From Pseudomonadota bacterium (GTDB taxonomy: Bacteria; Pseudomonadota; Gammaproteobacteria; Burkholderiales; Burkholderiaceae_C): a DNA stretch of 64,000 nt. The stretch spans positions 25,864-89,863 of the forward strand of contig JAJZEC010000007.1 of the NCBI GenBank assembly GCA_021805825.1, written 5' to 3'. Both the position numbers and the translations under genes were made by a program. The notes under the pieces were generated by a model. The model did not search any database and had not been told where the DNA came from. It worked only from the letters and a program-made list of their open reading frames with translations. Of this stretch, positions 1,818 to 40,848 are shown piece after piece (the first letter of the stretch is position 1; every line of letters starts with the position of its first letter).

Positions 1818-4800
1818 ATGGACACCGCAACCCCGTCCCCCATCGCCATCGTCGGCCTGGCCATGCGCCTGCCCGGCGACCTGCAACAACCACACGACCT
1901 CTGGCAGGCCTTGCGCGAAGGCCGCGATCTCGTCGGCAGCATCGACCCCGCGCGCTGGGCCACGCGCGAACTGCAACATCCCTCGCGCGCGGAACCCGGG
2001 CGCAGCATCACCTTCTCCGCCGGGGTGCTTTCGGACATCGAATCCTTCGATGCCTCCTTCTTCGGCATCTCCCCGCGCGAGGCGCAACTGCTCGACCCGC
2101 AGCAGCGCCTGCTGCTCGAAATGGCCTGGGAGACCCTGGAGGATGCAGGCATTCCGCCCACGCAGGTCGCCGGAAGCGACTGCGCGGTGTACCTGGGCAT
2201 CTCCGGGCTCGACTACGGCATGCGCCTGTTCGGCGACATGGCGGTCATGGGCGCCCACACCATGACGGGCAACACCATGAGCGTGGCGGCCAACCGCCTG
2301 TCCTATGTGTTCGACCTGCACGGTCCGAGCCTGGCGGTGGACACGGCCTGCTCCTCCTCCCTCGTGGCCCTGCACCACGGCTGCGAGGCGCTGCGCCACG
2401 GCCAGGCGGGCATGGCGCTGGTGGGGGGCATCAACGTACTGCTGCACCCCTATCCTTTCGTCGGCTTCACCAAGGCGTCCATGCTCTCGGCCAACGGCCG
2501 CTGCCGGCCCTTCGCTGCCGGCGCCGACGGCTATGTACGCGCCGAAGGCGGCGGGCTGCTGCTGCTCAAGCCGCTGCAGCAGGCGCTGCGCGACGGAGAC
2601 CGCATCCACGGCGTCATCCGCGCCAGCGGGGTCAACACCGACGGCGCGCGCAAGAGCGGGCTGACCATTCCCAGCGGGCAGGCACAGGCCGAGCTCATGC
2701 AGCAGGTGCTGGGCGCGGCCGGGCTGCAGGCGCAGGACATCGACTACCTGGAAGCCCACGGCACCGGGACGCGCATCGGCGACCCCATCGAAGCCGGCGC
2801 CATCGGCCGCGTCTACGGCCAGCCGCGCGACGGTGCGCCGCTGCCCATCGGCTCCATCAAGAGCAACCTGGGCCACCTCGAGCCCGCCTCCGGCATGGCC
2901 GGCCTGTTCAAGGCGCTGCTCGTGCTGCAGCACGCCGAGGTGCCGCCCACGCGGGTGCAGGGCGAACTCAACCCCGACATCGACTTCGACACCCTCGGCC
3001 TGCAGGTGGTACGCGAAGCGGCACCGCTGGCGCCTGCGCAACGCCCGCTGCGTGCGGCGGTCAACTCCTTCGGTTTCGGCGGGGTCAACGCCCACGTCAT
3101 CCTGGAGCAGCCGCCGTCGGCGGCGCCGCGCGCGATGCCGGCGTTCGACGCCGCCGCCCCCGCCGCCGCCCCGCTGCTGCTCAGCGCGCAGGACGCAGGC
3201 GCGCTGCGCGCGCTGGCGCGCGCCTACCTGCCGCTGCTGGAGGATCCGGCGCGGCGCGCCGAGGTGGCGCAGGCGGCCTGGCGTCAGCGTGCATGGCTGG
3301 GCGAACGCCTGGCGCTGGCCGATGCCGGCGATGCGCAGGCGCTGCAGGCGCTGCGCGACTTTGCCGAGGGCGGTGAAGCCGACACTGCCCGACTCTGGCA
3401 GGAGCAGGCGCTGCCCGACCTCGAAGGCGGCCACGCCCGGGTAGCCTGGATCTACAGCGGCAACGGCGCGCAATGGGTGGGCATGGGGCGGCGCCTGCGC
3501 CAGCAGAGCGCGCTGTTCGACAGCACGCTGCGCGACACCGCAGCGCGCATCGCCGCGCATGGCGGCCCCGACGTGCTCGCAGCGCTCGACGACGACCAGG
3601 CGCAGGCGATGGACGACACGGCGGTGGCGCAACCCGCGCTGTTCGCCCTGCAGGTGGCCACCACCAGCGTGCTGCGCAGCCGCGGGCTGCGCGCCGACGC
3701 CGCCATGGGACACAGCGTGGGTGAAATCGCCGCCGCGTGGGCGATGGGCGTGCTCGACCTCGACTCCGCCTGCCGTGTCATCGTCGCGCGCAGCGCGGCG
3801 CAGGCCACCACGCGCGGCGCCGGACGCATGGCCGCCGTGGGCCTGGGTGCGCAGGCGCTGCAGCAGCGGCTGCAGGCACTCGGGCTGGAAGGGCAGGTGG
3901 CCATCGCCGCCGACAACAGCCCGCGCAACAGCACCGTCAGCGGTACGCCGCAGGCACTGCAGCAACTGCACGAAGGCCTGCGCGCCGACGCGACCGCATG
4001 GCGCGAACTGGGTCTGGACTACGCCTTCCACAGCCCCGCCATGGACCCCATCCGCGAGCCCCTGCTGCACAGCCTGCAGGGGCTGCAGCCCGCGCCTGGC
4101 CAGGGACGCGTGTTCTCCAGCGTCACCGGGGCCGAACTCGCCGGCAGCGCCTTCGATGCCGACTACTGGTGGCACAACATCCGCGACTGCGTGCAATTCG
4201 CCCCCGCGCTGCGCGCCATGCGCGAGGCCGGGGTGCGCCTGTTCGTGGAAATCGGCCCGCATGCCATCCTGCAGCGCTACCTCGCGGAAACCCTCGACGG
4301 CGTGCTGCCGCAGGCGCGCGCCCTGGCCTGTGCGCCGCGCCGCGACGACACCCTGGCGCGGCTGCACGAATGCGTGCTGCGCGCGGCCATGCTCGGCGCC
4401 GAGGTGGACGCCGCGGCCTGGTTCGCGCAAGACCTGCCCCGGCGCGTGGCCCTGCCCTCCTACCCCTGGCAGCGCCAGCGCCACTGGTACCCGCGCAGCA
4501 GCGAATCGCGCAGCGCGCTGGAGCGGCGCGCCGTGCACCCCCTGCTCGGCTGGCGCCTGGATGACCATCCAGCCGGCTGGGAGAACCACCTCGACCCGCG
4601 CACGCAGACCTGGCTGGCCGGGCACAAGGTGGGCGGCGCCATGGTGCTGCCCGCCGCCGCCTATGTCGAAATGGCCCTCGCCGCCTCGAAGGAACACTTC
4701 GGCAGCGAAAGCGCCGGCCATGTGCTCGAAGGCCTCGACATCGTCGCTCCGGTGGTGTTCGACGGCGAGCACGCGCGCACCCTGCGCCTGCTCTTCGACG

Positions 4801-7800
4801 CGCAGTCGCTGCGCTTTCGCATCGAGGGCCGGCCGCGCCTGAGCGAGGACGCCTGGACGCTGCACGCCCAGGGGCGCCTGCTCGGCGCCGTTCCCGGCGG
4901 AGAATCGCGCCAGCCGCTGCTCGCGCAGCAACCCGCGGCCACGCGCCTCGACGCGCAGCGCCACTACGCCCTGTGCGAAGCCCTCGGGCTGGACTACAGC
5001 GGCGCCTTCCGCGCCATCCAGGGCATCGAGGTGGCGGCGCGCTCGATCAGCGCCACCCTGCGCCCCGACGACGCGTGCGACCCCGCCTGGCTGCTCCCGC
5101 CGCCGGCCCTCGACCAGGGCTTCCAGTCCGTTCTCGGCTGGCTCGGCGCGCTGCGCCAGGGTCCGGCCGAGGACGATGCCATGGGCTACCTGCCGGTAGG
5201 CATCGGCCGCCTCGACTACTGGGCACTTCCTGCCGCCGACGACGCGCCGGCGCAGCCCGTGCGCAGCGTGCGCGTCAGCTTGGTGCGCAGCAGCCCGAGA
5301 TCGGTGCTGGTCGACCTTGAACTCCTCGACGCCGCCGGCACGGTGCTGGCCCGCCTGCGCGACTGCCGCTTCCGCGCCGCCGCGCTGGTGGCGCAGGCGC
5401 GTGCGGTATCCACCTGGGCGCTGCTGCCCCAGCTGCAACCGCTGCCGCCGTCGCCCGAGGCCGCGGCGCGCGGCGGCCTGCCCGAGGCCGCGGCCCTGCT
5501 GCAGCGCCTGCAGCAGCAAGCCGTCGACACCGAACAGGCCGCCGTGCACGCGCGCTACCTGGAGCAGGCGGCGCCGCTGCTCGAACTGCTGCCGCTGGCG
5601 TTCGGCCGCGACGCACTGCTCGCGCAGTTGCCGCCCGGCTCGACGGTCGAGGACAGCCGCGTGGCGCAATGGCGCCAGGCGCATCCCCTGCTGCAATGGC
5701 TGCTCGACCAGATGGAACAGCAAGGCCTGCTGCTGCAAGGCGCGCAGGGCTGGGAACTGCACGACGACCCGCAGCTGCCAGCCGCCGCCGACATCTGGAA
5801 TGCTGCCCTCGAATCCTGCCCGCAGGCCGCCCCCGAGCTGCTGCAGCTCGGGCTGGCCGGCAGCGCGCTGCCGGCGCTGCTCGCCGGCGCAGCCGATGCA
5901 CCGGCAGCCGACCTGAGCGCGCTGCTGCGCGCTCCCGCCTACCGCATGGCCGACGCGCAGGCACTGCGCGCGCTGCACGCTCTGCTCGGCGACTGGCCGC
6001 GTGGCCGCAGGCTGCGCGTTCTCGAGCTGTGCTCCACCGACGATAGCCTGTTCAGCCCTGCCAGCGCCTGGCTCGAAGGGCTCGCGCACCCCCGCCCGCA
6101 GGATGTCGACTGGGTACTGGGTTGCGCCGATGCCGACGCCCTGGCGCAGTTGCAGGCCGCGCATGCCGATGACGCGCGGCTGCGCGCGCTGCTGCTGGAT
6201 CCGAACGAATTCGAACTCCCCGATCTGGCCGATGAAGCGCCCTTCGACATCGTGCTCGTGCGCCAGGTGCTGCACCGCAGTTCCAAGCCGCAGCGCGCGC
6301 TGCGCGCGCTGGCCGCGCGCATGCACAGCGACGCCTGGCTGCTGCTCGCCGAACGCCGCCCGGATCATGCAGCCCACCTGGGCTTCGGACTGCGGCGCGA
6401 CTGGTGGCATGTGACCGATGGGCGCGCCGAAGGCGCGCTGCTGCCCGACGCCACGTGGTGCGACTGGCTGGCCGAACACGGCTGGCGCGACACCGCCATC
6501 CTGCCCGCGGCCTCGTCCGAGCCCGCGGCGCTGCTCGGCGGCTTCGTGCTGCTGGCGCGCGCTCCGCGGCAGGCACTGCTGCAGCAACAGGCGGCGACGC
6601 CGGTCGACTGGGTGCTGCACCTGCAGCACCCGGCCTGGCAGGCCACCGCCGAACGACTGGCCGAGCGCCTGCGCGCGGCCGGCCACGGCGTGCGGCTGGC
6701 GAGCGCGGACGACGGAGCGGGCGCCGGCTCGCCACAGCGTCATGTGCTGTTCGTCGGCAGCGCACCGCGGTCCGGCGCGCAGCCCACGCCGGCCGACGCC
6801 GCCGAAGTCGCTCGCCAGGCCGAGGCGCTGCGCGGCAGCCTGCTCGAGCTGGCCGCCTCCCCCGAGGGCCGTCGCGTGCACCTGGTGCTGCGTGGCGGCG
6901 CGCTGGTCGACGACGCGCAGGCCACCGCGGCCGACCCGGCTGCCGCGGCGCTTTGGGGCCTGGCGCGGGTCGCGATGAACGAATGCCACCCGCTGGCGCT
7001 GCAGCTCATCGACCTCGATGCCGCCAGCCCCGACGAAGGCGCCGAACGCCTGTTGCAGGAACTGCTGCACGGCGACGACGAGCAGGAAGTGCTGCTCGGC
7101 GCCGCGCACGGCGCCCCGTTGCGCCAGGTGCCACGGGTACGCCCGCTGCCGCTGGAGGCGCAGCAGCACGACGCGCAGGCCTGGCGGCTGGACTTCCGCC
7201 TGGCCGGGCAACTGCGCAACCTGCAGTGGCAGGCGGTGCCGCGGCGCGAGCCCGGCCCCGGCGAGGTGGAGATCCGCGCCATGGCCGCGGGGCTCAACTT
7301 CCGCGACGTCATGTACGCGATGGGGCTGCTCGCCGACGAAGCGGTGGAGCAGGGTTTCGCCGGCGCCAGCCTCGGTCTGGAGGTGGCCGGGCGGGTGCTG
7401 CGCTGCGGCCCCGGGGTCGAACACCTGCGGCCTGGCGACGAGGTGCTGGCCTTTGCCGGCGCCAGCTTCGCCAGCCACGTGGTGGTGCCGGCGCGCGCGG
7501 TGGCCCGCAAGCCCGAGCACTGGAGCTTTGCCGAGGCCGCCACCGTGCCCACGGTGTTCTTCACCGTCTGGTACGCCCTCAAGCACCTGGCCCGGCTGCA
7601 GCCTGGCGAGCGCGTGCTGGTGCATGGCGCGGCCGGCGGTGTCGGGCTGGCGGCCATCCAGGTCGCCAGGCTGCTGGGCGCCGAGGTCTACGCCAGCGCC
7701 GGCAATCCGGCCAAGCGGGCCTTCGTGCGCATGCTCGGGGTACAGCACGTGGTCGACTCGCGCAGCCTGGACTTCGACCGCGCGGTGCTGCGCGCCAGCG

Positions 7801-9428
7801 ACGGCCAAGGCGTCGACGTGGTGCTCAATTCGCTGGCCGGCGAGGCCATTGCGCGCAACCTGGCGTGCCTCAAGCCCTTCGGCCGATTCATCGAACTGGG
7901 CAAGCGCGACTTCTACGAGAACACCCCCGTCGGCCTGCGCCCCTTCCGCAACAACCTGAGCTATTTCGGCGTCGATGCCGACCAGCTCATGTCGCTGCGC
8001 CCGGAACTCGCCGCCGAGGTGTTCGCCGAAGCCATGCAGTGCTTCGCCGACGGCAAGCTCCACCCGCTGCCGCACCGCCTGTTCGAGCCCGACCAGGTGG
8101 TCGACGCCTTCCGCCACATGCAGCAGGCGCGCCAGATCGGCAAGGTCGTGGTCGAGCTCGAGCGCCGGCCGCGCCACATCCAGCCGGCGCAGCGCCCGCG
8201 GCTGCAACTGCGCGCCGACGCCAGCTACCTGGTCAGCGGCGGGCTGTCGGGCTTCGGGCTGGCCAGCGCGCGCTGGCTGGCCGATCGCGGCGCACGCCAC
8301 CTGGTGCTGCTCGGCCGGCGCGGCGAGCAGACCCCCGGGCTGCAACAGCCGCTGCAGGAACTGCGCGCGCGCGGCGTGCAGGTTCAGGTGCACGCTTGCG
8401 ACATCAGCGACCGCCAGGCACTGCGCCAGGTGTTCGAGCAGATGCGCGCCGGCATGCCCGAACTGCGCGGCGTGCTGCACGCGGCGATGGTGCTCGACGA
8501 CGCGCTGATGAGCGGCCTGGACGAGCAGCGTCTGCGCCGCGTGCTGCAACCCAAGCTCGACGGCGCGTGGAACCTGCACCAGGCCACCGCCGGGCTGCCG
8601 CTGGATCTGTTCGTGCTGTTCTCGTCGGCCACCACCATGCTGGGCAACCCGGGGCAGGCCAACTACGTGGCGGCCAACGCCTCGCTGGAGGCGCTGGCGC
8701 GGCTGCGCCGCCGTCAGGGGCTGGCCGGCTGCGCGGTGGCCTGGGGGCCGATCGCCGATGTCGGCGTGCTCACCACCAACGAGGTCGCGCGCGAGAACCT
8801 GCAGGCGCGCCTGGGCGCCGCGCCCATCGAGTCGGCCGCAGCGCTGGATCGCCTGGAAGCCCTGATGCTGCAGCAGGTCGCCGGCGCGGCGGTGATGAAC
8901 CTCGACTGGCCATCGCTGCAGCGCCTGCTGCCCGGCGCCGGGGCACGACGCTTCGACACCCTGCGCGGAGCCGGCGGCGATGCCCGGGAGGACGACGAGG
9001 ACGACCTGCGCCAGCGCCTGGCCGCGCTGTGTGCCGACGAAGCCCGCGCGCTGGTGCAGCAGATGCTGTGCCGCGAGGTCGCTGAGATCCTGCGCCTGCC
9101 TGCCGACAAGGTGGGGCCGGCGCAGTCGGTGTTCGACCTCGGCATGGACTCGCTGATGGCCGTCGAGCTCGGGCTCGCGCTGGAGCGTCGCTTCGGCATC
9201 CGCGTGCCGCCGATGATGCTCAACGAAAACCCCAGCATCGAGCGTATCGCCGAGCGCCTGCTCGCCCAGCTCGGGCCGCAGCCGGGCGAGGAGGCTGCCG
9301 ACAGCACCCGCGACATGGTGCGCAGCGTGCTGTCGCAGCACGCCGAGAACACCGCGCTGCAGCAGGTCGACGAGCTCGCCCAGCAGGTGCGCCAGGCCGC
9401 CGAGGGCGGCACCCAACTCATTGCCTGA
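1818..9428 (+). CDS. wcbR: Type I reducing polyketide synthase KS-AT-DH-(pseudo MT)-ER-KR-ACP, WcbR/RkpA-like
   Basis: KS DTACSSS, HGTGT, KSNLGH; AT GHSVG and YAFHS; DH HKVGGAMVLP and ALDQGFQ; ER VHGAAGGVG; KR SGGLSGFG, VLDD, NYVAAN; ACP LGMDSL; no TE. Followed by a PLP acyltransferase as in Burkholderia wcb and rhizobial rkp loci. Start set at ATG 1818. Confidence 0.9.
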   Translation: MDTATPSPIAIVGLAMRLPGDLQQPHDLWQALREGRDLVGSIDPARWATRELQHPSRAEPGRSITFSAGVLSDIESFDASFFGISPREAQLLDPQQRLLLEMAWETLEDAGIPPTQVAGSDCAVYLGISGLDYGMRLFGDMAVMGAHTMTGNTMSVAANRLSYVFDLHGPSLAVDTACSSSLVALHHGCEALRHGQAGMALVGGINVLLHPYPFVGFTKASMLSANGRCRPFAAGADGYVRAEGGGLLLLKPLQQALRDGDRIHGVIRASGVNTDGARKSGLTIPSGQAQAELMQQVLGAAGLQAQDIDYLEAHGTGTRIGDPIEAGAIGRVYGQPRDGAPLPIGSIKSNLGHLEPASGMAGLFKALLVLQHAEVPPTRVQGELNPDIDFDTLGLQVVREAAPLAPAQRPLRAAVNSFGFGGVNAHVILEQPPSAAPRAMPAFDAAAPAAAPLLLSAQDAGALRALARAYLPLLEDPARRAEVAQAAWRQRAWLGERLALADAGDAQALQALRDFAEGGEADTARLWQEQALPDLEGGHARVAWIYSGNGAQWVGMGRRLRQQSALFDSTLRDTAARIAAHGGPDVLAALDDDQAQAMDDTAVAQPALFALQVATTSVLRSRGLRADAAMGHSVGEIAAAWAMGVLDLDSACRVIVARSAAQATTRGAGRMAAVGLGAQALQQRLQALGLEGQVAIAADNSPRNSTVSGTPQALQQLHEGLRADATAWRELGLDYAFHSPAMDPIREPLLHSLQGLQPAPGQGRVFSSVTGAELAGSAFDADYWWHNIRDCVQFAPALRAMREAGVRLFVEIGPHAILQRYLAETLDGVLPQARALACAPRRDDTLARLHECVLRAAMLGAEVDAAAWFAQDLPRRVALPSYPWQRQRHWYPRSSESRSALERRAVHPLLGWRLDDHPAGWENHLDPRTQTWLAGHKVGGAMVLPAAAYVEMALAASKEHFGSESAGHVLEGLDIVAPVVFDGEHARTLRLLFDAQSLRFRIEGRPRLSEDAWTLHAQGRLLGAVPGGESRQPLLAQQPAATRLDAQRHYALCEALGLDYSGAFRAIQGIEVAARSISATLRPDDACDPAWLLPPPALDQGFQSVLGWLGALRQGPAEDDAMGYLPVGIGRLDYWALPAADDAPAQPVRSVRVSLVRSSPRSVLVDLELLDAAGTVLARLRDCRFRAAALVAQARAVSTWALLPQLQPLPPSPEAAARGGLPEAAALLQRLQQQAVDTEQAAVHARYLEQAAPLLELLPLAFGRDALLAQLPPGSTVEDSRVAQWRQAHPLLQWLLDQMEQQGLLLQGAQGWELHDDPQLPAAADIWNAALESCPQAAPELLQLGLAGSALPALLAGAADAPAADLSALLRAPAYRMADAQALRALHALLGDWPRGRRLRVLELCSTDDSLFSPASAWLEGLAHPRPQDVDWVLGCADADALAQLQAAHADDARLRALLLDPNEFELPDLADEAPFDIVLVRQVLHRSSKPQRALRALAARMHSDAWLLLAERRPDHAAHLGFGLRRDWWHVTDGRAEGALLPDATWCDWLAEHGWRDTAILPAASSEPAALLGGFVLLARAPRQALLQQQAATPVDWVLHLQHPAWQATAERLAERLRAAGHGVRLASADDGAGAGSPQRHVLFVGSAPRSGAQPTPADAAEVARQAEALRGSLLELAASPEGRRVHLVLRGGALVDDAQATAADPAAAALWGLARVAMNECHPLALQLIDLDAASPDEGAERLLQELLHGDDEQEVLLGAAHGAPLRQVPRVRPLPLEAQQHDAQAWRLDFRLAGQLRNLQWQAVPRREPGPGEVEIRAMAAGLNFRDVMYAMGLLADEAVEQGFAGASLGLEVAGRVLRCGPGVEHLRPGDEVLAFAGASFASHVVVPARAVARKPEHWSFAEAATVPTVFFTVWYALKHLARLQPGERVLVHGAAGGVGLAAIQVARLLGAEVYASAGNPAKRAFVRMLGVQHVVDSRSLDFDRAVLRASDGQGVDVVLNSLAGEAIARNLACLKPFGRFIELGKRDFYENTPVGLRPFRNNLSYFGVDADQLMSLRPELAAEVFAEAMQCFADGKLHPLPHRLFEPDQVVDAFRHMQQARQIGKVVVELERRPRHIQPAQRPRLQLRADASYLVSGGLSGFGLASARWLADRGARHLVLLGRRGEQTPGLQQPLQELRARGVQVQVHACDISDRQALRQVFEQMRAGMPELRGVLHAAMVLDDALMSGLDEQRLRRVLQPKLDGAWNLHQATAGLPLDLFVLFSSATTMLGNPGQANYVAANASLEALARLRRRQGLAGCAVAWGPIADVGVLTTNEVARENLQARLGAAPIESAAALDRLEALMLQQVAGAAVMNLDWPSLQRLLPGAGARRFDTLRGAGGDAREDDEDDLRQRLAALCADEARALVQQMLCREVAEILRLPADKVGPAQSVFDLGMDSLMAVELGLALERRFGIRVPPMMLNENPSIERIAERLLAQLGPQPGEEAADSTRDMVRSVLSQHAENTALQQVDELAQQVRQAAEGGTQLIA

Positions 9429-9447
9429 GCCCCCGGAGAACCACCCC

Positions 9448-10812
9448 ATGAGCTCCGCCGACGACAAGCAACCCAGCGCCAAGCCGGCGGCCCGGCCCAC
9501 GGGCCTGGCCGCGATGGCGCGCCAGCGACTGATCGAGCGCCTGCGCGGCCCGGCCGCCCCTGGCGGCGCCTCCGCGCGACTGCAGGAGGAACACGCCGAT
9601 CCCCATCCCAGGGTGCCGGAGTCGCTGTGCCGTTTCGACACCCACCCGGCCTACGAGAAGCTGCTGGTGTCGCAGACCGCCGCACAGCGCGTGGGGGTGG
9701 GCAACCCCTTCTTCAAGGTGCATGAATCGGCCGCCGGCGCCACCACCCGCATCGCCGGCCGCGAATACGTCAACTTCTCCAGCTACGACTACCTCGGGCT
9801 CAACGGCCACCCGCGCATCGAGGAAGCCGTGTTGCAGGCGGTGCGACGCTACGGCACCTCGGCGTCGGCCAGCCGTCTGGTGGCCGGCGAGCGCCCGATC
9901 CAGCGCGAGCTGGAAGCCGAGCTCGCCGCTTTCTACGGCGCGCAGGCCTGCGTGGCCTTCGTCAGCGGCCACGCCACCAACGTCAGCACCATCGGCAGCC
10001 TGTTCGGGCCGAAGGATCTGGTGCTGCACGACGCGCTGGCGCACAACAGCGTGCTCGAGGGCATCAAGCTGTCGGGGGCGCACCGGCGCGGCTTCGCGCA
10101 CAACGACTGGCAGCAGCTCGACGCGCTGCTGCACCAGATGCGGGGTGACTTCGAACGCGTGCTGGTGGTCGTCGAAGGCCTGTACAGCATGGACGGCGAC
10201 CTGCCGGAACTGCCCCGCTTCATCGAAGTCAAGCGCCGCCACAAGGCGCTGCTGATGGTCGACGAGGCGCATGGGCTGGGGGTGCTCGGAGCCACTGGGC
10301 GCGGCGTGGCCGAGCACTGGAGCATCGCCCCCGACGGGGTCGACATCTGGATGGGCACGCTCAGCAAGTCCCTTGCCGGCTGCGGGGGCTTCGTCGCCGG
10401 CAGCCGCCCGCTGGTCGAGCTGCTCAAGTACACGGCGCCGGGCTTCGTCTACAGCGTGGGGCTGTCGCCTGCGATGGCCGCCGCGTCACTGGAGGCGCTG
10501 CGCATGCTGCGCGAACAGCCCGAGCGCGTGCAGGCGCTGCAACGCAACGGTCAGCTGCTGCGCGACTACGCGCGCACGCGCGGCATCGACACCGGGCTGT
10601 CGATGGGCTACGCGATCACCCCCGCGATCCTCGGCTCCTCGCTGCGCGCGGTGAAGGCCTCCAACGCGCTCTTCGAGCGCGGCTTCAACGTACAACCCAT
10701 CGTGCACCCGGCGGTCGAGGAGCGCGCCGCGCGGCTGCGCTTCTTCGTGTCCGCCTCGCACACCGCGGCGCAGATCACCTCGGCGGTCGACGCACTGGCG
10801 CGGGCCCTGTAG
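9448..10812 (+). CDS. wcbT: PLP-dependent alpha-oxoamine synthase (AONS/SPT family), WcbT/RkpG-like
   Basis: NFSSYDYLGL, GTSASASRLVAG, HNS, EGLYSMDGD, DEAHG, GTLSK (PLP Lys). ATG 9448 with GGAGA upstream; alternative TTG 9421 overlaps the PKS stop. Confidence 0.85.
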   Translation: MSSADDKQPSAKPAARPTGLAAMARQRLIERLRGPAAPGGASARLQEEHADPHPRVPESLCRFDTHPAYEKLLVSQTAAQRVGVGNPFFKVHESAAGATTRIAGREYVNFSSYDYLGLNGHPRIEEAVLQAVRRYGTSASASRLVAGERPIQRELEAELAAFYGAQACVAFVSGHATNVSTIGSLFGPKDLVLHDALAHNSVLEGIKLSGAHRRGFAHNDWQQLDALLHQMRGDFERVLVVVEGLYSMDGDLPELPRFIEVKRRHKALLMVDEAHGLGVLGATGRGVAEHWSIAPDGVDIWMGTLSKSLAGCGGFVAGSRPLVELLKYTAPGFVYSVGLSPAMAAASLEALRMLREQPERVQALQRNGQLLRDYARTRGIDTGLSMGYAITPAILGSSLRAVKASNALFERGFNVQPIVHPAVEERAARLRFFVSASHTAAQITSAVDALARAL

Positions 10813-11183
10813 TGTCCCGCCCGCGTGGCCGCCTGCGCGCGTTCACCGACGCTGCCCGCGGCCTGCGCGTGCTGCTGGCCACCCAGCCGCACGCCCGATT
10901 CCATGCCGTGGCGAGCGCAGCGGCGCTGCTACTGGGCGCGGTGCTGCACCTGAGCGCGTGGCGCTGGGCCGCGGTGCTCGCGGCCATCGCGCTGGTCGTC
11001 GTCGCCGAGGCGCTCAACACCGCGGTGGAATTCGCCGTGGATCTGGCCAGCCCGCAGTGGCACGAACGCGCGCGCGACGCCAAGGACGTCGCAGCGGCCG
11101 CCGTGCTGCTGGCCAGCCTGGCCGCGCTGGCGCTGGGCCTGCTGGCCTTTGGCGAACCGCTGCTGCACCGCCTCGGCGGCTGA
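10812..11183 (+). CDS. dgkA: Diacylglycerol/undecaprenol kinase family (DgkA) membrane protein
   Basis: Three hydrophobic helices, AEALNTAVEFAVD and AKDVAAAAVL motifs; GTG start overlaps the upstream TAG. Confidence 0.88.
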   Translation: MSRPRGRLRAFTDAARGLRVLLATQPHARFHAVASAAALLLGAVLHLSAWRWAAVLAAIALVVVAEALNTAVEFAVDLASPQWHERARDAKDVAAAAVLLASLAALALGLLAFGEPLLHRLGG

Positions 11184-11236: not shown

Positions 11237-11370
11237 CGGCGCGACGACGTGCAAGCCTTCGCGCGCTCGTGCGATCAACTCGATGTACCACTGGCCGTGG
11301 AAGTATCGCGATCTGGCCAGGGCGCGCATGCCTGGGCCTTCTTCCAAACGGCGGGGAGTGCGCGCGATGG
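11237..11370 (+). pseudogene. Remnant of an archaeo-eukaryotic primase (AEP, TOTE-type) / primase-helicase gene
   Basis: About 45 codons RDDVQAFARSCDQLDVPLAVEVSRSGQGAHAWAFF resemble the SRSGxGxHxWxFF AEP motif; no start codon, and similarity ends at the toxin stop. Confidence 0.55.
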
Positions 11371-11709
11371 TCAATCCAGCAGGGCCACGAGACGCCCGAT
11401 AGCGTCGTCGATCACCTCTTGGGGTGCATGCTCGATCTTGCGCGCCTTGCGAGCGGCTAGGTCAAGCATGCGAATCTTGTTCACCAAGGCTACGCCCTGT
11501 GTCTTGCAGCCAGTGCCCGTCAGGGTCACAGCAAAGCCGGCGTAGCGTGCGAAGTCGCCGCCCTGGGTGATCGGCGCGATCAGCACATCGCCGAGCCAGT
11601 TGAACTCCTTGGTCGTCAGGACCAGAGCCGGCCGGGTGCCGCGCTGCTCAAGGCCGATGGCGGGGTCCAGGGGCACGCTCACGATGTCGCCTCGTTCGAA
11701 AACAGCCAT
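11371..11709 (-). CDS. chpB: Type II toxin, ChpB/MazF/PemK endoribonuclease family
   Basis: 112 aa: FERGDIVSVPLDPAIGLEQRGTRPALVLT...APITQGG...QGVALVNKIRMLD. Start overlaps the antitoxin-part stop (TGATG). Confidence 0.9.
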   Translation of the reverse strand: MAVFERGDIVSVPLDPAIGLEQRGTRPALVLTTKEFNWLGDVLIAPITQGGDFARYAGFAVTLTGTGCKTQGVALVNKIRMLDLAARKARKIEHAPQEVIDDAIGRLVALLD

Positions 11710-31053: not shown

Positions 31054-32181
31054 ATGAACGACAGCAAGACCTACGTCACCCGCCCCTGGTTGCCGCCGTT
31101 GTCGGAGTTCCTGCCGTACCTGGAGGAAATCTGGCGCAACAAGACCCTGACCAACAACGGCCCGTTCCACCAGCGTTTCGAGGCCGCGCTGTGCGAGCAC
31201 CTGGGGGTCGAGCATGTCTCGCTGTTCTGCAACGGCACCATCGCCCTCGTGACCGCGCTGCAGGCGCTGGGCATCGAGGGCGAGGTGATCACGACCCCGT
31301 ACTCCTTCGTGGCCACCGTGCACAGCCTGGTGTGGAACCGCATCGAGCCGGTGTTCGTCGACATCGATCCGCACAGCTGCAACCTCGACCCCCGCGCCAT
31401 CGAGGCCGCGATCACGCCGCGCACGACGGCGATCCTGCCGGTGCACTGCTACGGCACGCCGTGCGCGGTGGACGAGATCCAGGCGGTGGCCGATCGCCAT
31501 GGGCTGCGCGTGCTGTACGACGCCGCGCATGCCTTCGGCGTGCGCCAGCACGGCCGCAGCCTGCTCGCCCACGGCGACATGTCGGTGCTGAGCTTCCATG
31601 CGACCAAGGTGTTCCAGACCTTCGAGGGCGGAGCGGTGATCTGCAGGGATGCGCGCTCCAAGGCGCAGGTCGATTACCTGAAGAATTTCGGCTTCGCCAA
31701 CGAGGTCACGGTGGTGGCCACCGGAATCAACGGCAAGATGAGCGAGGTCAACGCGGCCTTCGGCCTGCTGCAGCTCGAACATGTGGATCAGGCGCTGGCG
31801 CTGCGCGCGGCCGTCGACGCGCGCTACCGCGAGCAACTGGCGCTTGTGGAAGGCGTGCATTGCCTGCCGCGCGCGCCGGTGGACACCGACAACCATGCCT
31901 ATTTCCCGGTGCTGGTGACGGCCGGGGAGACGGTGCGCGACCGGGTGTACGCGTACCTCAGGCAGCATGGGGTTTTCGCCCGCCGCTATTTCTATCCCTT
32001 GATCTCGGATTTCCCGATGTACCGCAATCTGCCGTCGGCGGCGCCGGAACGCCTGCCGGTGGCCCGCAGCGTCGCGCAGCAGATCCTGTGCCTGCCGATC
32101 TTTCCGGATCTGCCGCTCGACAAGGTGGACGAGATCTGCCGCCTGCTGGCGCTTGCGCTGGAGTCGCGGCATGCTGCCTGA
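31054..32181 (+). CDS. vioA: DegT-family aminotransferase, VioA-like (dTDP-4-amino-4,6-dideoxyglucose synthase)
   Basis: YVTRPWLPPL, LTNNGPFH, TPYSFVAT, YDAAHAFG, LSFHATKVFQTFEGG, GINGKMSE, RRYFYP. Confidence 0.8.
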   Translation: MNDSKTYVTRPWLPPLSEFLPYLEEIWRNKTLTNNGPFHQRFEAALCEHLGVEHVSLFCNGTIALVTALQALGIEGEVITTPYSFVATVHSLVWNRIEPVFVDIDPHSCNLDPRAIEAAITPRTTAILPVHCYGTPCAVDEIQAVADRHGLRVLYDAAHAFGVRQHGRSLLAHGDMSVLSFHATKVFQTFEGGAVICRDARSKAQVDYLKNFGFANEVTVVATGINGKMSEVNAAFGLLQLEHVDQALALRAAVDARYREQLALVEGVHCLPRAPVDTDNHAYFPVLVTAGETVRDRVYAYLRQHGVFARRYFYPLISDFPMYRNLPSAAPERLPVARSVAQQILCLPIFPDLPLDKVDEICRLLALALESRHAA

Positions 32182-33106
32182 GGGGGAACGTTTCGACCTC
32201 GTCGAGCCCGTTGCGCTGGCCGAACTGGACGAACTGGACGCTGTAGGCGCGCGGCCGGGGCCGCACGCCAGCGTGCGCGGCCTGGCGCTGCTCGGCCACG
32301 GGCAGGAAGGCGATCTCTCGTTCTGCGACCGGGCGCCGGCGCCTTCGCTGGTGCTGCGGGCGGGCAGCTGGGTGCTGAGCACCGAGGCGCTGGCCGCCGA
32401 CTTGCGCGCGCGCTTCCCGCAGGTCGGGTGGCTGGTCGCCGAGGACCCGCGGGCGGTGTTCATCGACTTCGGGCATGCGCTGCTGGCGCGCGAGGCGGTG
32501 GCGGTCGACGCGCGCCTGCCGCGCCCCTTCGGCATCGACCCCGGCGCGCAGGTCGGGCCGCATGCCGTGGTGCACCCGCACAGCCGCATCGAGGCCGGGG
32601 CGCGCATCGGCGCGCATTGCGTGATCCATCGCGGCAGCTGGATCGGGCCGCGCGCGGTGATCCGCGACCACGCGGTGGTCGGCGTCGAGGGCATCAACGC
32701 CTATCGCGGCGCCGACGGCCGGGTGCGCAGCTTTCCGCATTTCGCCGGGGTGCTGGTCGGCGCGGATGCCGAGGTCGGTGCCGGCGCGGTGCTGGTCAAG
32801 GGCATCCTGACGCACACCCGGGTGGGCGCCCGCTCCATCATCGGCAACCTGTGCAACGTGGGGCATGGGGTCGAGGTCGGCGAAGGCGTGTGGATGTCGG
32901 TGGGCTGCCTGGTCGGCGGCCACAGCGCGATCGGTGCCGGCGCCACGCTGGGCCTCGGGGTGCGGGTGCGGGACAATCTGCGGATCGGCGCCGGAGCCAG
33001 CGTCGGCATGGGCAGCGTGGTCGTGCGCCCGGTGCCGCCGGCGGCCTCGGTGTTCGGCAACCCGGCCCGCGCCATGCCGGCGGTGCAGGCCGGCCCCGCG
33101 CGATAG
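32171..33106 (+). CDS. Hexapeptide-repeat acyltransferase with LpxD-like N-terminal domain
   Basis: EGDLSF and EDPRAVF N-terminal domain; IG/VG hexapeptide repeats; IGNLCNVGHGVEVG (His at the LpxD catalytic position); GNPARA. Confidence 0.8.
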   Translation: MLPEGERFDLVEPVALAELDELDAVGARPGPHASVRGLALLGHGQEGDLSFCDRAPAPSLVLRAGSWVLSTEALAADLRARFPQVGWLVAEDPRAVFIDFGHALLAREAVAVDARLPRPFGIDPGAQVGPHAVVHPHSRIEAGARIGAHCVIHRGSWIGPRAVIRDHAVVGVEGINAYRGADGRVRSFPHFAGVLVGADAEVGAGAVLVKGILTHTRVGARSIIGNLCNVGHGVEVGEGVWMSVGCLVGGHSAIGAGATLGLGVRVRDNLRIGAGASVGMGSVVVRPVPPAASVFGNPARAMPAVQAGPAR

Positions 33107-33114: not shown

Positions 33115-33699
33115 ATGGATCTTCGCCTGGAATTGCCGTTCAAGGGAGACCGCAACTACCTGCACGGCACCGACATCCACGATGCCGTGCGCGACGCCGT
33201 ACGGAACCGGTGGGGCGAGGCCGAGGCCGTCGATCTGTCCTTCCACCGCCTGGCGCGGCACGCGCTGCGGCTGCGCGACGAGGCGCCGGCTCAGGAGGCG
33301 ATGGCCGTCTGCCGCTGCAGGGCCGGCGGCGGCGCACGGCAACTGTGGGTGGTCGAAACGGAGGAGCCGGTGCAGGGCCGCAGGCCCTACGACGAAGAGG
33401 CGGTCGTCGCCCCGATGCAGGTCGACCACGACCGTCGCGTGGCCGTGCTCGACGGCGACCGCGCGCGCACCGACATCGAGACCTGGGTGGCGATGACCAA
33501 GCGCCTGCACCAGCTGGCGCTGCCCGATCTGCGCGGCAGATGGCTGTTCGTGCGCGCGCGCCTGCCGCGCTTCGGCGGCGCCGGCGGGCCGGCCCGGCGC
33601 GAGATCCGGATCGCCGCGGTGCTCGGCAACCGGCTGACCCGCAACGAACTGCTGCTCGACGGGAAGCCGGCGGGCGAGATCTACTTCGCGCTGGATTGA
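33115..33699 (+). CDS. Hypothetical protein of the acyl-sugar cassette
   Basis: GGAG RBS, 194 aa, FKGDRNYLHGTD motif; sits between the acyltransferase and KAS III with 8-10 nt gaps. Confidence 0.7.
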   Translation: MDLRLELPFKGDRNYLHGTDIHDAVRDAVRNRWGEAEAVDLSFHRLARHALRLRDEAPAQEAMAVCRCRAGGGARQLWVVETEEPVQGRRPYDEEAVVAPMQVDHDRRVAVLDGDRARTDIETWVAMTKRLHQLALPDLRGRWLFVRARLPRFGGAGGPARREIRIAAVLGNRLTRNELLLDGKPAGEIYFALD

Positions 33700-34904: not shown

Positions 34905-36242
34905 TCAGACGATCGACGTGCCGACCCCGAGCCTGCGGCGCACCTGCAGGTACATCAGTCCGTTCCACAGGATCATCGTGAGCAGCGTCGCGGTGGCCGC
35001 GCCCAGGCTGCCCCAGCGCGGGATCAGCAGCAGGTTGAGCGCGATGTTGAGCGCCGCGGCCACGCCCGCGGCGCGCGCCGCTGCGCCCTCGCCGCCGGTC
35101 ATGTTGAGCACCAGGCCGACGGAGCCGAAGCCGACGTTGATCAGCTGCGCGGCGCACAGCACGAGCATCGGCGCGTAGGCACCGGCATAGGCAGCACCGA
35201 GCACCGGGATGATCAGCCAGCGCGCGCCGACCGCGATGGCCAGCGCGACCAGCGCCGCGACCAGCAGGGTGCTGCGCGCGCTCAGCCGCAGCAGGCGCTG
35301 CAGCTTGCGGTGATCGCCATGGGTATGCAGGGTGACGACATGCTTGGCGATGAACAGGTTGGCGGCGTTCAGCGGCAGCACGACGAGCGAGGCCGCCTGC
35401 ACCGCGACGCGGTAGATGCCGGCGTCGCGCGCGCCGCCCAGCACCCCGAGCAGCAGCAGGTCGGCCTGCACGTTGATCAGCATCAGTCCGCCCATGAGGG
35501 CGAAGGGAACGACCGCGCGCAACCAGGCCGCGGTGTCGTGTTGCGCAGGGGCCTGCGCGACTTCGGGCGGGCGATGGCGCCGCAGCCAGTTGCGCGTGAC
35601 CAGCAGCACGACCGCGACGGCCGCGCCCTGCAGCAGCAGCACGGCCTGCGGGCCGAGCAGCGCCGGCCGCAGGAGCAGCGCGGCCGCCAGGAACAGCGCG
35701 AACAGCCAGGGGCGCAGCACACTGCCCGGCACCTGGCTGAGCACCCCGGGGTGCACGCCGCGCAGCGCGGCGGCGTAGAAGGTGCTGGTGGGCAGCAGCA
35801 GCAGCAGCAGCGCACTGGCGGCGATGGCCGGCGGCGAGATCGCGCCGTGGCCGTGCGCGCCGCCGAACAGCCCGAAGGCCAGCGCCAGCGCCGCGGTGGG
35901 CACCGCGTAGACCAGCGAGGCGCGCCAGGCCAGGCGCCACAAGCCGCGCAGGCGCGCCCAGTCGGAGGTGGCGCAGTATTGCGCCGTGTAGCGCAGCACG
36001 ACCTGGTCGAGCCCGCTCAGGGGCATCACCTGCACCAGGCCGATCGCGGCGCCGACGAAGCTGTAGATGCCGAAACCGACGGGGCCGAGGTGCCGCGCCA
36101 GGACGACGGCGACCAGGAACTGCAAGGGCAGCGCCTGCACCTGGATCAGCAGGCTGAAGGCACCGCCGCGGAACAAGGGGCTGCTGCGCAGGCGCTGCGC
36201 GTAGGCCAGCCAGGCGGCCAGGCGGGGGAACCGGCTGTTCAA
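34905..36242 (-). CDS. Second Wzx-like flippase
   Basis: LARHLGPVGFGIY, DLLLLG, AGIYRVA, QLINVGFGSVGLVLNMTG, LNLLLIPRWGSLGAA. TTG 36242 with GGAG chosen as start. Confidence 0.85.
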   Translation of the reverse strand: MNSRFPRLAAWLAYAQRLRSSPLFRGGAFSLLIQVQALPLQFLVAVVLARHLGPVGFGIYSFVGAAIGLVQVMPLSGLDQVVLRYTAQYCATSDWARLRGLWRLAWRASLVYAVPTAALALAFGLFGGAHGHGAISPPAIAASALLLLLLPTSTFYAAALRGVHPGVLSQVPGSVLRPWLFALFLAAALLLRPALLGPQAVLLLQGAAVAVVLLVTRNWLRRHRPPEVAQAPAQHDTAAWLRAVVPFALMGGLMLINVQADLLLLGVLGGARDAGIYRVAVQAASLVVLPLNAANLFIAKHVVTLHTHGDHRKLQRLLRLSARSTLLVAALVALAIAVGARWLIIPVLGAAYAGAYAPMLVLCAAQLINVGFGSVGLVLNMTGGEGAAARAAGVAAALNIALNLLLIPRWGSLGAATATLLTMILWNGLMYLQVRRRLGVGTSIV

Positions 36243-36342
36243 GGCCCGTCGCTCCAGGCCCGCGCACACCGCGCGCGCGGCGGTGGCGCGCCGACCAGCA
36301 GGCGCCCTCCGGGCGATGCGGTGCGGATGGTGGGATGCGTGC

Positions 36343-37290
36343 TCACCGCACGGATTGTGCCTGCTCTCCCGGGCCGCGCGGATCGCGGCCTCCGCCCTGC
36401 CCTGCACGCCCGGCGGCCCACTCCCGCAGCGGCGCGCAGGCGGCGACGAAGGGCGGATTGCGCCAATCCCCCCCCGGGGGGTAGCGCAGCGGCCGGCCCT
36501 GCAGGTCGTGCACGCAGCCGCCGGCGCCTTCGAGCACGGCCTGCGCGGCCGCGGTGTCCCACAGGCAGGTGGGGCCCAGGCGGGGGTAGACATGCGCCAG
36601 CCCCTGGGCGACGCGGCAGAACTTCAGGGAACTTCCGGCCTGCAGCAGTTCGCAGCGGCCCAGGCCCCGGATGAAGTCGGCGGTCGCCGCGTCGAGGTGG
36701 CTGCGGCTGGCCACCACGCGGCAGGGCTCGGCGGGCGCCGGGGGCGGGGCGACGTGGATCGGCCGCTCGCCCTGGGCGTCGCGCTGCCAGGCGCCGAGGC
36801 CGGGGCCGCCCCAGAAGCTCTGCCCCAGCGCCGGGGCGTGCACCACGCCCCAGACCACCACCCCGCCGCGCACGAGGGCGATGTTGACGCTGAACTCGCC
36901 GTTGCCGGCGAGGAATTCGCGGGTTCCGTCGAGCGGGTCGACCAGCCAGAAGGGCTGCCCGGCTTGCAGCGCAAGCTCGGGGCCTTCCTCGGACACCACC
37001 GCCACGTCGGAAAGCAGCCGCGGCAGCTGCTGCACGATCAACTGATGGGCCTCGAGGTCGGCGCGGGTCAGCGGGCTGCCGTCGGCCTTGTCGGCCAGGC
37101 GGGCGCCGGGAGCCCGGGGCGCGCAGGCTTCGCGGTGGTGCTGCTCGTACAGGCGCAGGATGCGCTGCCCGGCCTGCTCGGCCAACTCCAGCAGCTGCCG
37201 CACCAGGGTGGAGTCGGGCGCAGCAGCGATTGCGGAGCCTTGCGCGGCCGGGGTGGGTGTCGGGCTTTGTTGACGCATATTGTGATTCAT
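36343..37290 (-). CDS. cysQ: 3'(2'),5'-bisphosphate nucleotidase
   Basis: [55 protein letters not shown]. Confidence 0.93.
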
Positions 37291-38914: not shown

Positions 38915-40848
38915 TGCAGCGGCGCATGCAGGATCGCCTTCCGGAGCGGGGGGCCGCCCCGCCGCAAGCACCGAGCGCGCAACCCCTGGCGCAGGATCTG
39001 CTGCGGCTGATCACCTGCGGCAGTGTGGACGATGGCAAGAGCACCCTGATCGGCCGCCTGCTGTGGGAGGCGCAGCAGGTGCCGGAGGATCAGCTGCAGG
39101 CCCTGCGCGCCGACAGCCGGCGCTACGGGACCCAGGGCGACGACATCGACTACGCGCTGCTGGTCGACGGCCTGGCCGCCGAGCGCGAGCAGGGCATCAC
39201 CATCGACGTGGCCTACCGCTATTTTTCCAGCGCCAGCCGGCGCTTCATCGTCGCCGACACCCCGGGGCACGAGCAGTACACCCGCAACATGGTGACCGCG
39301 GCCTCCACCGCCGACGCCGCGCTGCTGCTGGTCGACGCCCGCGCCGGACTGCAGCGGCAGACCCGCCGGCATGCCTACGTGGCCTCGCTGCTGGGCGTGC
39401 GCCATGTGCTGCTGGCGGTGAACAAGATGGATCTGGTGGACTTCCGCGAGGAGGTCTTCCGCGGCATCGAACGGGCCTTCGCGGACTTCGCCCGGGATCT
39501 GGGCTTCGCCTCGCTGACCGCGGTGCCGCTGAGCGCGTTGCGCGGGGACAACCTCAGCCAGCGCTCGGCGCACACGCCCTGGTACCAGGGGCCGACGCTG
39601 CGCGGCTGGCTCGACGGCGTGCCGGCGCGCGCGCCGGCGGCCGCGGAGGAGCCGGCGGCCTTCCCGGTGCAGTGGGTGAACCGGCCGGATGCGGGCTTTC
39701 GGGGCCTGAGCGGCAGCGTGGCGCGCGGGGTGCTGCGCGTGGGCGATGAACTGCGGGTGACGGCCTCGGGCGAACGGGCCCGGGTGGCGGAAATCCTCGG
39801 CTTCGACGGCGCGCTGCCGCAGGCCGAGGCCGGGCGGGCGGTGACCCTGCGGCTGGATCGGGAGATCGACGCCTCGCGCGGCGACATGCTGAGCCACGCC
39901 GCCGACCCGCTGCAGGGTGCCGACCAGTTCGAGGCGGTGCTGGTATGGATGCATGCGGACGCCGGGCTGGTCGGCCGCAGCTACGAGATCAAGCTGGCGA
40001 CGCAGACGGCCGCCGCCTCGATCACCAGCATCGGCCACCGGGTGAACGTGGATACGCTGGCGCCCGAGCCCACGCACCAGCTCGGCATGAACGACATCGC
40101 TGTGTGCAAGCTGGCGGCGACGCGGGCGCTGGCCTTCACGCCCTATGCGCAGTCGCGCGAACTCGGGGCCTTCATCCTGATCGACCGCTTCAGCCATGCG
40201 ACGGTGGCCGCGGGCATGATCCGCCACGCACTGCGCCGAGCCACCAACGTGCACCGCCAGGCCCTGAGCATCACCCCGGCGCAGCGCGAGCGCATGAACG
40301 GCCATGCGGCGCAGGTGCTGTGGTTCACCGGCCTGTCGGGAGCGGGCAAGTCGACCCTGGCCAACGCGCTGGAGGTGGCGCTGCATGCGCGCGGCATGCG
40401 CACCTACCTGCTCGACGGCGACAACCTGCGCCACGGCCTGAACCGCGACCTGGGATTCACCGAGGCCGACCGCGTGGAGAACATCCGCCGCGTGGCCGAA
40501 GTGGCGCGCCTGATGGCCGACGCCGGGCTGGTGGTGCTGAGCGCCTTCATCTCGCCCTATGCCCGCGATCGCGCGATGGCGCGCGAGATCATCGGCGCCG
40601 AGCGTTTCGTCGAGGTGTATGTGGACACCCCGCTGGAGGTCTGCGAGGCGCGCGACGTGAAGGGCCTGTACCGCAAGGCGCGCAGCGGCCTGATTCCCAA
40701 CATGACCGGGGTGCAGAGCCCCTACGAAGCCCCGGAGCAGCCGGATCTGCGCATCAGCGGCAGCCAGGGCTCGCCGCAGGCCGCGGTGCAGCAGCTGCTG
40801 CAGGCCTTGTGCGAGCGCGGTGCGCTGCCGGCGGGCGACAGCCATTGA
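38914..40848 (+). CDS. cysNC: Bifunctional sulfate adenylyltransferase subunit 1 / APS kinase (CysN/CysC, NodQ-like)
   Basis: [36 protein letters not shown]; C-terminal [32 protein letters not shown] coupling to cysD. Confidence 0.95.

Follow-up and report, generated by a model that had tools for sequence, protein, structure and literature searches.

The window analysed here is a stretch of 64,000 nucleotides from contig JAJZEC010000007.1 of a Burkholderiales bacterium (assembly GCA_021805825.1), and our subject is the lipid and surface-glycan genes located at positions 1815-40848. As the window is approximately 70% GC, genes were called by third-position GC (GC3) and frame patterns, and they were named using Pfam and NCBIfam models. 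From the letters alone, the region had previously been read as one 39-kb unit assembling a short, sulfated and N-acylated glycolipid on a polyketide lipid (the original prediction). Every gene class listed by that prediction was recovered: a polyketide synthase (PKS) with an alpha-oxoamine synthase (AOS), a lipid kinase, GDP-fucose and GDP-perosamine pathways, an acylation cassette for a viosamine-type sugar, a methyltransferase, a sulfotransferase with a supply of 3'-phosphoadenosine-5'-phosphosulfate (PAPS), and two flippases. Similarly, the Pfam/NCBIfam scan upheld that Wzy, Wzz and KpsMT are missing from 1815-40848, and no further proteins with multiple transmembrane (TM) segments were seen in the stretch. 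While the genes are present, the region is however not contiguous, as MazEF, ligase, oxidoreductase and lipase-like genes at 11.2-12.4 and 22.5-29.5 kb interrupt it.

We separate the genes into the PKS-AOS pair (module A), a sulfated-sugar operon (B), a group of intervening genes (C), an N-acyl-amino-sugar cassette (D) and the PAPS supply (E). Module distribution was counted in 18 same-genus genomes, module B was sought in 30 relatives, and about 100 homologous loci were sampled in total. Module A occurs in 9 of the 18 genomes, E in 7, D in a single one and B in none, with no consistent pairing; the B block is also absent from all 30 relatives, and B and D were never found together in the homologous loci examined. 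We consider it reasonably probable that the stretch represents a variable, horizontally remodelled surface-glycan island of independently inherited modules, and not one pathway. Gene identities, synteny and module distribution are reported below as observed, and substrates as assigned by homology.

The PKS-AOS pair and its surroundings

Module A and the genes that follow it are:

1815..9428, plus strand: single-module iterative type I PKS of the WcbR/RkpA/SgaA type (Pfam domains)
9421..10812, plus strand: AOS of the WcbT/RkpG/SgaB type (Aminotran_1_2)
10812..11183, plus strand: DgkA, lipid kinase of the prokaryotic diacylglycerol-kinase family (PF01219, 99 bits)
11237..11370, plus strand: startless shard with an AEP-primase motif (SRSGQGAHAW; translation)
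11371..11682, minus strand: MazF/PemK toxin (PF02452, 76.6 bits)
11709..12446, minus strand: in-frame chimera of a WecA-like (Glycos_transf_4) protein and MazE-ChpS (Pfam, ChpS match)
12642..13655, minus strand: DUF218/ElyC-like membrane protein (PF02698, 114.8 bits; weak ElyC match)

The PKS spans 2,537 residues with the Pfam domain order KS-AT-DH-(MT-like)-ER-KR-ACP, and its active-site motifs DTACS, HGTGT, GHSVG and LGMDSL are all intact. The AOS carries the pyridoxal-phosphate lysine motif GTLSK, BioF and serine-palmitoyltransferase models score under their cut-offs, and homologues 53-80% identical to it adjoin a PKS in many Proteobacteria. A scan with one genome per species returned 80 AOS loci (53-78% identity), for which all neighbouring open reading frames (ORFs) were clustered and the recurrent families run against Pfam. 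The PKS was adjacent in 77 of the 80, KpsM and KpsT were nearby in 27 and 23, the Capsule_synth proteins KpsS and KpsC in 26 and 16, and KpsD in 14, together with a short-chain dehydrogenase/reductase (SDR) in 20, a sulfatase-family membrane protein in 19 and a glycosyltransferase (GT) of the GT1 type in 13. Five same-genus genomes share the gene order PKS-AOS-ManC-x-KpsM(-KpsT)-GT, with KpsD upstream in one, and in same-genus relatives KpsM/KpsT are located 1-3 kb past the AOS. This neighbour set is the rkp-1/wcb arrangement and, as judged from synteny, module A belongs to Kps capsule loci; WcbR/RkpA-type PKS genes have also been placed in wcb/rkp capsule clusters of Burkholderia, Nitrosomonas and rhizobia (PMC3908369).

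SgaAB of Pseudomonas fluorescens generates C24-C28 sphinganines and a phosphoglycerol sphingolipid; pairs of this type yield free sphingolipids without capsule genes, and the word 'capsule' is absent from the text of the 2025 SgaAB paper (PMC12134224). With the AOS being 53-57% identical to Pseudomonas homologues, the module A product is by homology predicted to be a very-long-chain sphinganine-type lipid. In loci L007-L086 of Beta- and Gammaproteobacteria, an SDR, a sulfatase/LtaS-family membrane protein, KpsS/KpsC and KpsMT often flank the SgaAB-like pair, and these flanking genes fit a capsule anchored by a sphingoid phosphoglycerol lipid.

In the source genome, dgkA, the primase shard, MazEF and the truncated WecA-like gene take the place of the Kps genes downstream of the AOS. 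Profiles built from related loci recovered no capsule-type KpsM/T, KpsS or KpsD in the 3.35-Mb assembly of 110 contigs, and an rkpH-like SDR and an rkpI-like sulfatase-family membrane protein were likewise not found in the genome. The search for KpsM/KpsT retrieved only a Wzm/Wzt-like pair in an O-antigen-like context (contig C70), and the only Poly_export gene is Wza-like (contig C52), with no KpsD/KpsE-type partner. The only KpsC-like (Capsule_synth) gene is found on a 5-kb contig, C101, where positions 450-4913 (L095) encode a GT1-family protein, an Fcl paralogue (59%), the KpsC-like protein, HipB and the N-terminus of HipA. C101 resembles a fragment split off from the Kps locus that relatives retain beside PKS-AOS. 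Contig-end overlaps of C101, and of the 3.7-kb contig C3 described below, gave no matches to the window.

The start of dgkA overlaps the AOS stop, and the kinase had been grouped with PKS and AOS as one lipid set. The pair itself stands, the kinase as a part of it does not: the genome has no dgkA other than that of the window, and the gene was found next to the AOS in 0 of the 80 loci and 0 of the five same-genus loci. The possibility that dgkA is a conserved third gene of a lipid operon was hence ruled out, and the trio is specific to this genome. Between dgkA and mazF, the shard encodes VSRSGQGAHAWAFF, which is AEP-primase-like, and this piece was probably left behind by a mobile element that has since been deleted. 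In the chimera, approximately 170 N-terminal WecA-like residues with four TM segments match positions 5-81 of the 160-position Glycos_transf_4 profile; the WecA part stops at ...GGVANSI and runs on as KMGNSTAVVIPP (MazE/ChpS), with an intact MazF downstream. There is one other Glycos_transf_4 gene in the genome (contig C87), probably MraY. The true start of the DUF218 protein is probably near residue 90.

It could be argued that the region is partly decaying, with module A deprived of its Kps exporter and module B of a cognate initiating transferase, and one or both making no finished product. The WecA-like gene indeed breaks off within the catalytic domain and continues into MazE, there is a primase shard, and no capsule-type KpsM, KpsT, KpsD or KpsS was found in the genome, only the KpsC-like contig ending in HipBA. 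However, no other ORF of modules A, B, D or E is damaged, codon bias is normal and catalytic motifs are preserved, three Bac_transf enzymes encoded elsewhere could stand in for the truncated transferase, and SgaAB-type pairs make their sphingolipids without capsule genes (PMC12134224). We therefore regard decay as improbable and retain the view of a remodelled island of independently inherited modules.

The single product of the original prediction would be a short sulfated, methylated and N-acylated oligosaccharide, built by all sub-clusters on a DgkA-phosphorylated PKS/AOS lipid, exported by Wzx and left unpolymerised. Congruent with such a scheme, all parts lie inside 39 kb, the stretch is devoid of Wzy, Wzz and KpsMT, glycosyltransferases are few, dgkA overlaps the AOS, and truncation of the undecaprenyl-type initiating transferase leaves room for another lipid acceptor; moreover, in one relative (G018) PAPS genes adjoin a wcbR-like PKS. 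On the other hand, the modules are portable, with uncorrelated distributions and other contexts in relatives, and the scheme lacks comparative support. A and B are convergent with the mobile-element scar in between, unrelated genes split B from D, and the sole dgkA of the genome is never AOS-linked elsewhere. The partners of the PKS lipid module in relatives are Kps exporters and KpsC/KpsS rather than Wzx, and the stretch encodes two different Wzx flippases, one each in B and D. Wzx proteins are known to handle undecaprenyl-diphosphate-linked units and are not known to handle sphingoid lipids, again in conflict with the scheme. Overall, a single glycolipid appears very improbable, and the evidence from module A is better accommodated by an island of separately inherited parts.

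The sulfated-sugar operon and the PAPS genes

Module B consists of:

13435..14640, minus strand: GT1, GT-B (Glycos_transf_1) glycosyltransferase (Pfam; 36-37% identical orthologue in L087-L091)
14637..15755, minus strand: DegT1, GDP-perosamine synthase-like aminotransferase (PDB matches 3BN1, 3DR4)
15755..16507, minus strand: methyltransferase dependent on S-adenosylmethionine (Methyltransf_25/23/11)
16504..16869, minus strand: WbuC-like cupin (TIGR04366, 31 bits, under cut-off; orthologues in L087-L091)
16998..17798, minus strand: PAPS-type sulfotransferase (PF00685, 65.7 bits)
17805..19115, minus strand: Wzx-type flippase 1 (PF01943, 38.9 bits; 10 hydrophobic segments)
19186..20280, minus strand: Gmd, GDP-mannose 4,6-dehydratase (PF16363, 513 bits; only Gmd in the genome)
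20273..21268, minus strand: Fcl, GDP-L-fucose synthase (NF047922, 506.5 bits against a cut-off of 500)
21303..22748, minus strand: ManC, mannose-1-phosphate guanylyltransferase/isomerase, first gene of the operon (Pfam)

These genes form an operon in the order ManC-Fcl-Gmd-Wzx-sulfotransferase-WbuC-methyltransferase-DegT-GT1, with intergenic spacing of -8 to +128 nt, and the GC content of the module dips to 0.63-0.67, 4-8 points under its surroundings. ManC is unlike the operon genes after it in being of high GC, and it is 64-70% identical to the AOS-adjacent ManC of relatives; here it is instead located 10.5 kb from the AOS, on the opposite strand, heading the Wzx operon. DegT1 matches the Caulobacter GDP-perosamine synthase best (317 bits, the next family scoring 238), and judged from sequence all four genes of the GDP-perosamine and GDP-L-fucose pathways (ManC, Gmd, Fcl and perosamine synthase) are present. 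The original assignments of these two pathways, as well as of an acyl carrier protein (ACP)-dependent N-acylation of a viosamine-type sugar by module D, hold as homology-based predictions. The sulfotransferase displays QKSGSQW, a motif resembling a 5'-phosphosulfate loop. Its homologues, 56-66% identical, were found only in metagenome or metagenome-assembled genome (MAG) contigs, and an exact look-up of the window protein in the contig index returned nothing.

A set of eight genes (Gmd, Fcl, WbuC-like, DegT, methyltransferase, GT1, Wzx and sulfotransferase) recurs in three independent contexts (L087-L091), with identities of 71% for Gmd, 66-70% for the WbuC-like protein, 59-67% for DegT1 and 58-62% for the sulfotransferase. 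In each context the block is part of a conventional Wzx/Wzy locus, its neighbours being a Wza of approximately 1000 residues, Wzz/GNVR, either Wzy_C or a membrane protein lacking annotation, several GT2/GT4 genes and a Bac_transf initiating enzyme; PKS/AOS, PAPS genes and the acyl cassette do not occur within 10 kb of the block in these loci. Judged from its sequence and synteny, module B is best read as a block gained by horizontal transfer that decorates the sugars of a polymer. The eight-gene block, with its methyltransferase and WbuC-like cupin, is uncharacterised and known from metagenome/MAG loci only.

The PAPS genes of module E are situated beyond module D:

36343..37209, minus strand: CysQ, phosphatase of 3'-phosphoadenosine-5'-phosphate (TIGR01331, 236 bits against a cut-off of 229)
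37418-38914, plus strand: CysD (Pfam PAPS_reduct)
38914-40848, plus strand: fusion of CysN and adenosine-5'-phosphosulfate kinase (Pfam GTP_EFTU, APS_kinase)

The genome contains two sulfotransferases and three cysDN sets, namely that of the window, a 64-72% identical paralogue on C3 and a kinase-less housekeeping CysDN on contig C54. As judged by sequence, the window set is NodPQ-like and separate from the housekeeping CysDN. CysNC of the E type is found in 7 of the 18 same-genus genomes, and the contigs concerned bear no relation to module B or module D. The CysD protein further displays an N-terminal extension of approximately 200 residues (window 37418-38030) with no Pfam match. The extension is conserved at 64-77% identity near full length in the C3 paralogue (C3:360-1679) and in same-genus genes (L107-L109, L111), and it is thus a real domain of this PAPS-type CysD. 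For a Bordetella homologue, the ORF region upstream yielded weak HTH_29 and DDE_3 matches only.

The N-acyl-amino-sugar cassette and glycan genes elsewhere

Module D comprises:

29632..30618, minus strand: uncharacterised GT-B-fold family protein of 328 residues (no Pfam match; structure)
31054..32181, plus strand: DegT2, DesI/VioA-like aminotransferase for a dTDP-4-amino-4,6-dideoxyhexose (PDB 2PO3, DesI, 234 bits)
32153..33106, plus strand: LpxD-like left-handed beta-helix hexapeptide transferase (NF002060, 142 bits; top PDB matches LpxD)
33133..33699, plus strand: double hot-dog-fold protein of 188 residues (no Pfam match; AF2 pLDDT 95.8)
33719-34636, plus strand: KAS III, a beta-ketoacyl-ACP synthase (Pfam ACP_syn_III, ACP_syn_III_C)
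34637-34885, plus strand: dedicated ACP (Pfam PP-binding)
34905..36407, minus strand: Wzx-type flippase 2, divergent from the cassette (PF01943, 55 bits)

For DegT2, TIGR04427 is the top NCBIfam model, and the closest solved enzyme is DesI, a dTDP-4-amino-4,6-dideoxyglucose transaminase. The LpxD-like protein is probably an acyl-ACP-dependent N-acyltransferase. Foldseek matches of the hot-dog protein were PKS DH domains and acyl-ACP thioesterases, making it a candidate dehydratase or thioesterase that may replace the ketoreductase of the Pseudomonas viosamine island; its family, of approximately 195 residues, is always found between a hexapeptide transferase or aminotransferase and KAS III-ACP. 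The original prediction recognised a single clear glycosyltransferase and a WavQ-like protein in the region, a count that needs revision: the protein at 29632-30618 was modelled with confidence (AF2 pLDDT 88.5) and all its top Foldseek matches are GT-B glycosyltransferases, and it is thus a probable second one. The family to which it belongs has 2,023 representatives at E<=1e-3, some of them fused in proteins of 1,000-1,200 residues, and it accompanies VioA-like aminotransferases both in the window and in a flagellar island on contig C8 (paralogue C8:15197-16102). Both Wzx proteins have 10-11 hydrophobic segments and score over the Polysacc_synt cut-off.

The seven genes are syntenic and 69-82% identical in L092 and in the same-genus genome G013, with Wzx 2 in the same position (77% identity) and the GT-B orthologue at 69%; neither module B, a PKS nor CysQ/CysDN is near the cassette in these two. 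Its neighbours in L092 are a further Polysacc_synt gene and a GT9 gene, while the G013 copy fills an 8.4-kb contig. In L093, the module D core accompanies RmlA/RmlB, a large methyltransferase-TPR protein, flagellin and FliA/FlhDC, a context that by its gene content is a flagellin glycosylation island, and L094 places the core in another O-antigen-like locus. The contexts of L092-L094 were reached through homologues of the hot-dog protein. In the source genome, rmlA and rmlB are encoded elsewhere, and the C8 flagellar glycosylation island has its own DegT2 (59%) and GT-B (38%) paralogues.

Polymerase and export genes were also detected outside the stretch, at odds with the expectation of a product without them: three Wzy_C proteins (polymerase/ligase), one Wzz/Wzc, Wza, Wzm/Wzt and the KpsC-like gene, along with three Bac_transf enzymes. 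The ABC-transporter-type, O-antigen-like locus at C70:20942-27375 (L096) encodes Bac_transf, GT2, Wzm, Wzt, an RgpF-like protein and an epimerase. As the window copies of Gmd and ManC are the only ones in the genome, one may speculate that they also serve the C70 locus.

An alternative is that B, D and E jointly feed one undecaprenyl-linked heteropolysaccharide, an O-antigen or exopolysaccharide of fucose, methylated/sulfated perosamine and N-acyl-viosamine, with the PKS unrelated and with priming, polymerisation and ligation genes elsewhere. B and D each having a single GT, these could be complementary; Wzy_C, Wzz, Wza, Bac_transf and rmlAB are encoded elsewhere in the genome; and the PAPS genes abut module D while the sulfotransferase belongs to module B. 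Against this, a single unit would not need two flippases, B and D are separated by six kb of unrelated genes, the two modules never co-occur in the homologous loci examined, and the relatives have B in 0 of 30 and D in one. We consider a shared polymer unlikely compared with independently inherited modules.

The genes between B and D (module C), and a regulator upstream of the PKS, are:

22552-24666, plus strand: AMP-forming acyl-CoA ligase, 704 residues (Pfam)
24663-26762, plus strand: molybdopterin oxidoreductase, 699 residues (Pfam)
26783-27193, minus strand: small unknown protein
27637-29193, plus strand: lipase/alpha-beta-hydrolase-like protein (Pfam)
456..1511, plus strand: LysR-family regulator (Pfam HTH_1, LysR_substrate)

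The ligase and oxidoreductase genes overlap by 4 nt, and the pair was found in two same-genus genomes only (83-88% identity), with differing neighbours. A role of the two in acylation chemistry, by analogy with V. cholerae RfbL, was considered and is not supported, given the two relatives and the unrelated neighbours. Module C is not glycan-related.

Assembly, significance and relation to known systems

How might the modules of a remodelled island operate? Module A would be a lipid unit whose Kps partners have been replaced, stranded beside the primase shard, MazEF and truncated WecA. Module B would make GDP-fucose and GDP-perosamine and supply a methyltransferase, a sulfotransferase, one GT and a flippase. 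Module D would make and transfer an N-acylated 4-amino-4,6-dideoxyhexose by a dTDP-viosamine-type route, the acyl chain being built on its own ACP by KAS III and the hot-dog enzyme and transferred by the LpxD-like enzyme, again with its own GT-B enzyme and flippase. Module E, we infer, serves the sulfotransferase(s) by providing PAPS in trans. With two flippases, at least two different undecaprenyl-linked units are implied, whose completion would fall to polymerase, ligase and initiating enzymes with genes outside the stretch; the glycans that receive these units are likewise a matter of inference.

Several observations weigh against this picture. In the present genome all modules are found within 39 kb, which could reflect selection for co-function, and the window sulfotransferase, one of only two in the genome, is 19 kb from the PAPS set. 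B and D have one GT each, and the nearby initiating transferase is truncated, which leaves a gap at the priming step of module B. Kps absence is not provable from a 110-contig assembly. Lastly, in the same-genus relative G018, positions 1-9830 of C114 (L109) encode RNase R, a phage-type integrase, CysQ / CysD-CysNC and directly a wcbR-like PKS, an island bounded by the integrase, and in a Bordetella petrii locus the PAPS genes and the AOS are 3-6 kb apart. These two loci indicate that a PAPS-PKS/capsule link is real in some lineages, and PAPS genes beside PKS/capsule genes are the best evidence for a part of the original idea.

The earlier interpretation is thus partly supported. Wzy-type, LPS-core-like and flagellin contexts were seen, so that sub-clusters acting on separate glycans, and polymerase or export functions residing elsewhere, the two outcomes named beforehand as contradicting it, are both at least partly borne out. 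There is in addition a slight chance that the Kps-less sphingoid module has been re-coupled to the horizontally acquired Wzx operon. The bacterium would then carry on its surface a PKS-made, DgkA-phosphorylated sphingoid lipid bearing a sulfated and methylated oligosaccharide of perosamine/fucose, perhaps with N-acyl-viosamine; if true, O-antigen-type machinery would here be assembling a bacterial glycosphingolipid.

Viewed as a single pathway, the region is no discovery, being a recombination hotspot where glycan and lipid modules of known kinds are found. The parts nevertheless have interest of their own. The PKS/AOS capsule-lipid pair parted from its Kps exporter is a natural case, and thereby a test of the lipid's own role, such as SgaAB sphingolipids have in Pseudomonas. 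Sulfated bacterial surface polysaccharides are uncommon, and the module B block would add sulfate and methyl groups to a perosamine/fucose-containing Wzy-type polymer. Module D is a portable seven-gene unit with two unannotated families, the GT-B-fold transferase and the double hot-dog protein.

Among known systems, module A shares the single-module PKS directly followed by an AOS with Sinorhizobium rkp-1 (rkpA PKS, rkpG oxoamine synthase). The same pairing is seen in wcbR/wcbT of the Burkholderia pseudomallei-group capsule locus, and a Kps-type locus starts with this pair in same-genus relatives. Unlike in the rkp-1/wcb loci, the window pair has lost the adjacent KpsM/KpsT and GT, and is followed instead by dgkA and the toxin-antitoxin scar. 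A KS-AT-DH-ER-KR-ACP PKS with an AOS is also common to SgaA/SgaB of Pseudomonas fluorescens MYb115. Module B shares ManC-Gmd-Fcl-Per, Wzx and a GT1-family transferase with per/gmd/fcl of E. coli O157 and the Caulobacter perosamine O-antigen, whereas compared with Wzx/Wzy O-antigen/exopolysaccharide loci the window locus has no Wzy, Wzz or intact initiating transferase.

The analogy drawn earlier to rhizobial rkp and nodPQ chemistry is borne out, with a PKS/AOS of the WcbR/RkpA (SgaAB) class and a PAPS set of NodPQ-like CysD/CysN-CysC and CysQ. As in sulfated rhizobial polysaccharides (LpsS, NodH with NodPQ), this set is combined with a PAPS-dependent sulfotransferase; the latter however differs from the LpsS/NodH systems in being a SULT-like Sulfotransfer_1 protein inside a sugar operon.

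Module D resembles the viosamine island of Pseudomonas syringae (vioA, vioB, vioT, KAS III, ACP, reductase) in its DesI/VioA-type 4-aminotransferase, KAS III and ACP. The acyltransferase is however LpxD-like here and VioB-like in P. syringae, and the window cassette has the double hot-dog protein in place of a VioR-like ketoreductase/SDR. Also unlike that island, module D includes a Wzx and a GT-B protein, and the flagellar island of this genome is on C8; the presence of the Wzx and GT-B genes points to a periplasm-facing, lipid-linked glycan, not to cytoplasmic flagellin glycosylation. Finally, N-acylation by means of a KAS III and a dedicated ACP is a theme that module D shares with the ACP-dependent N-acylation of perosamine by rfbK-O in Vibrio cholerae O1.

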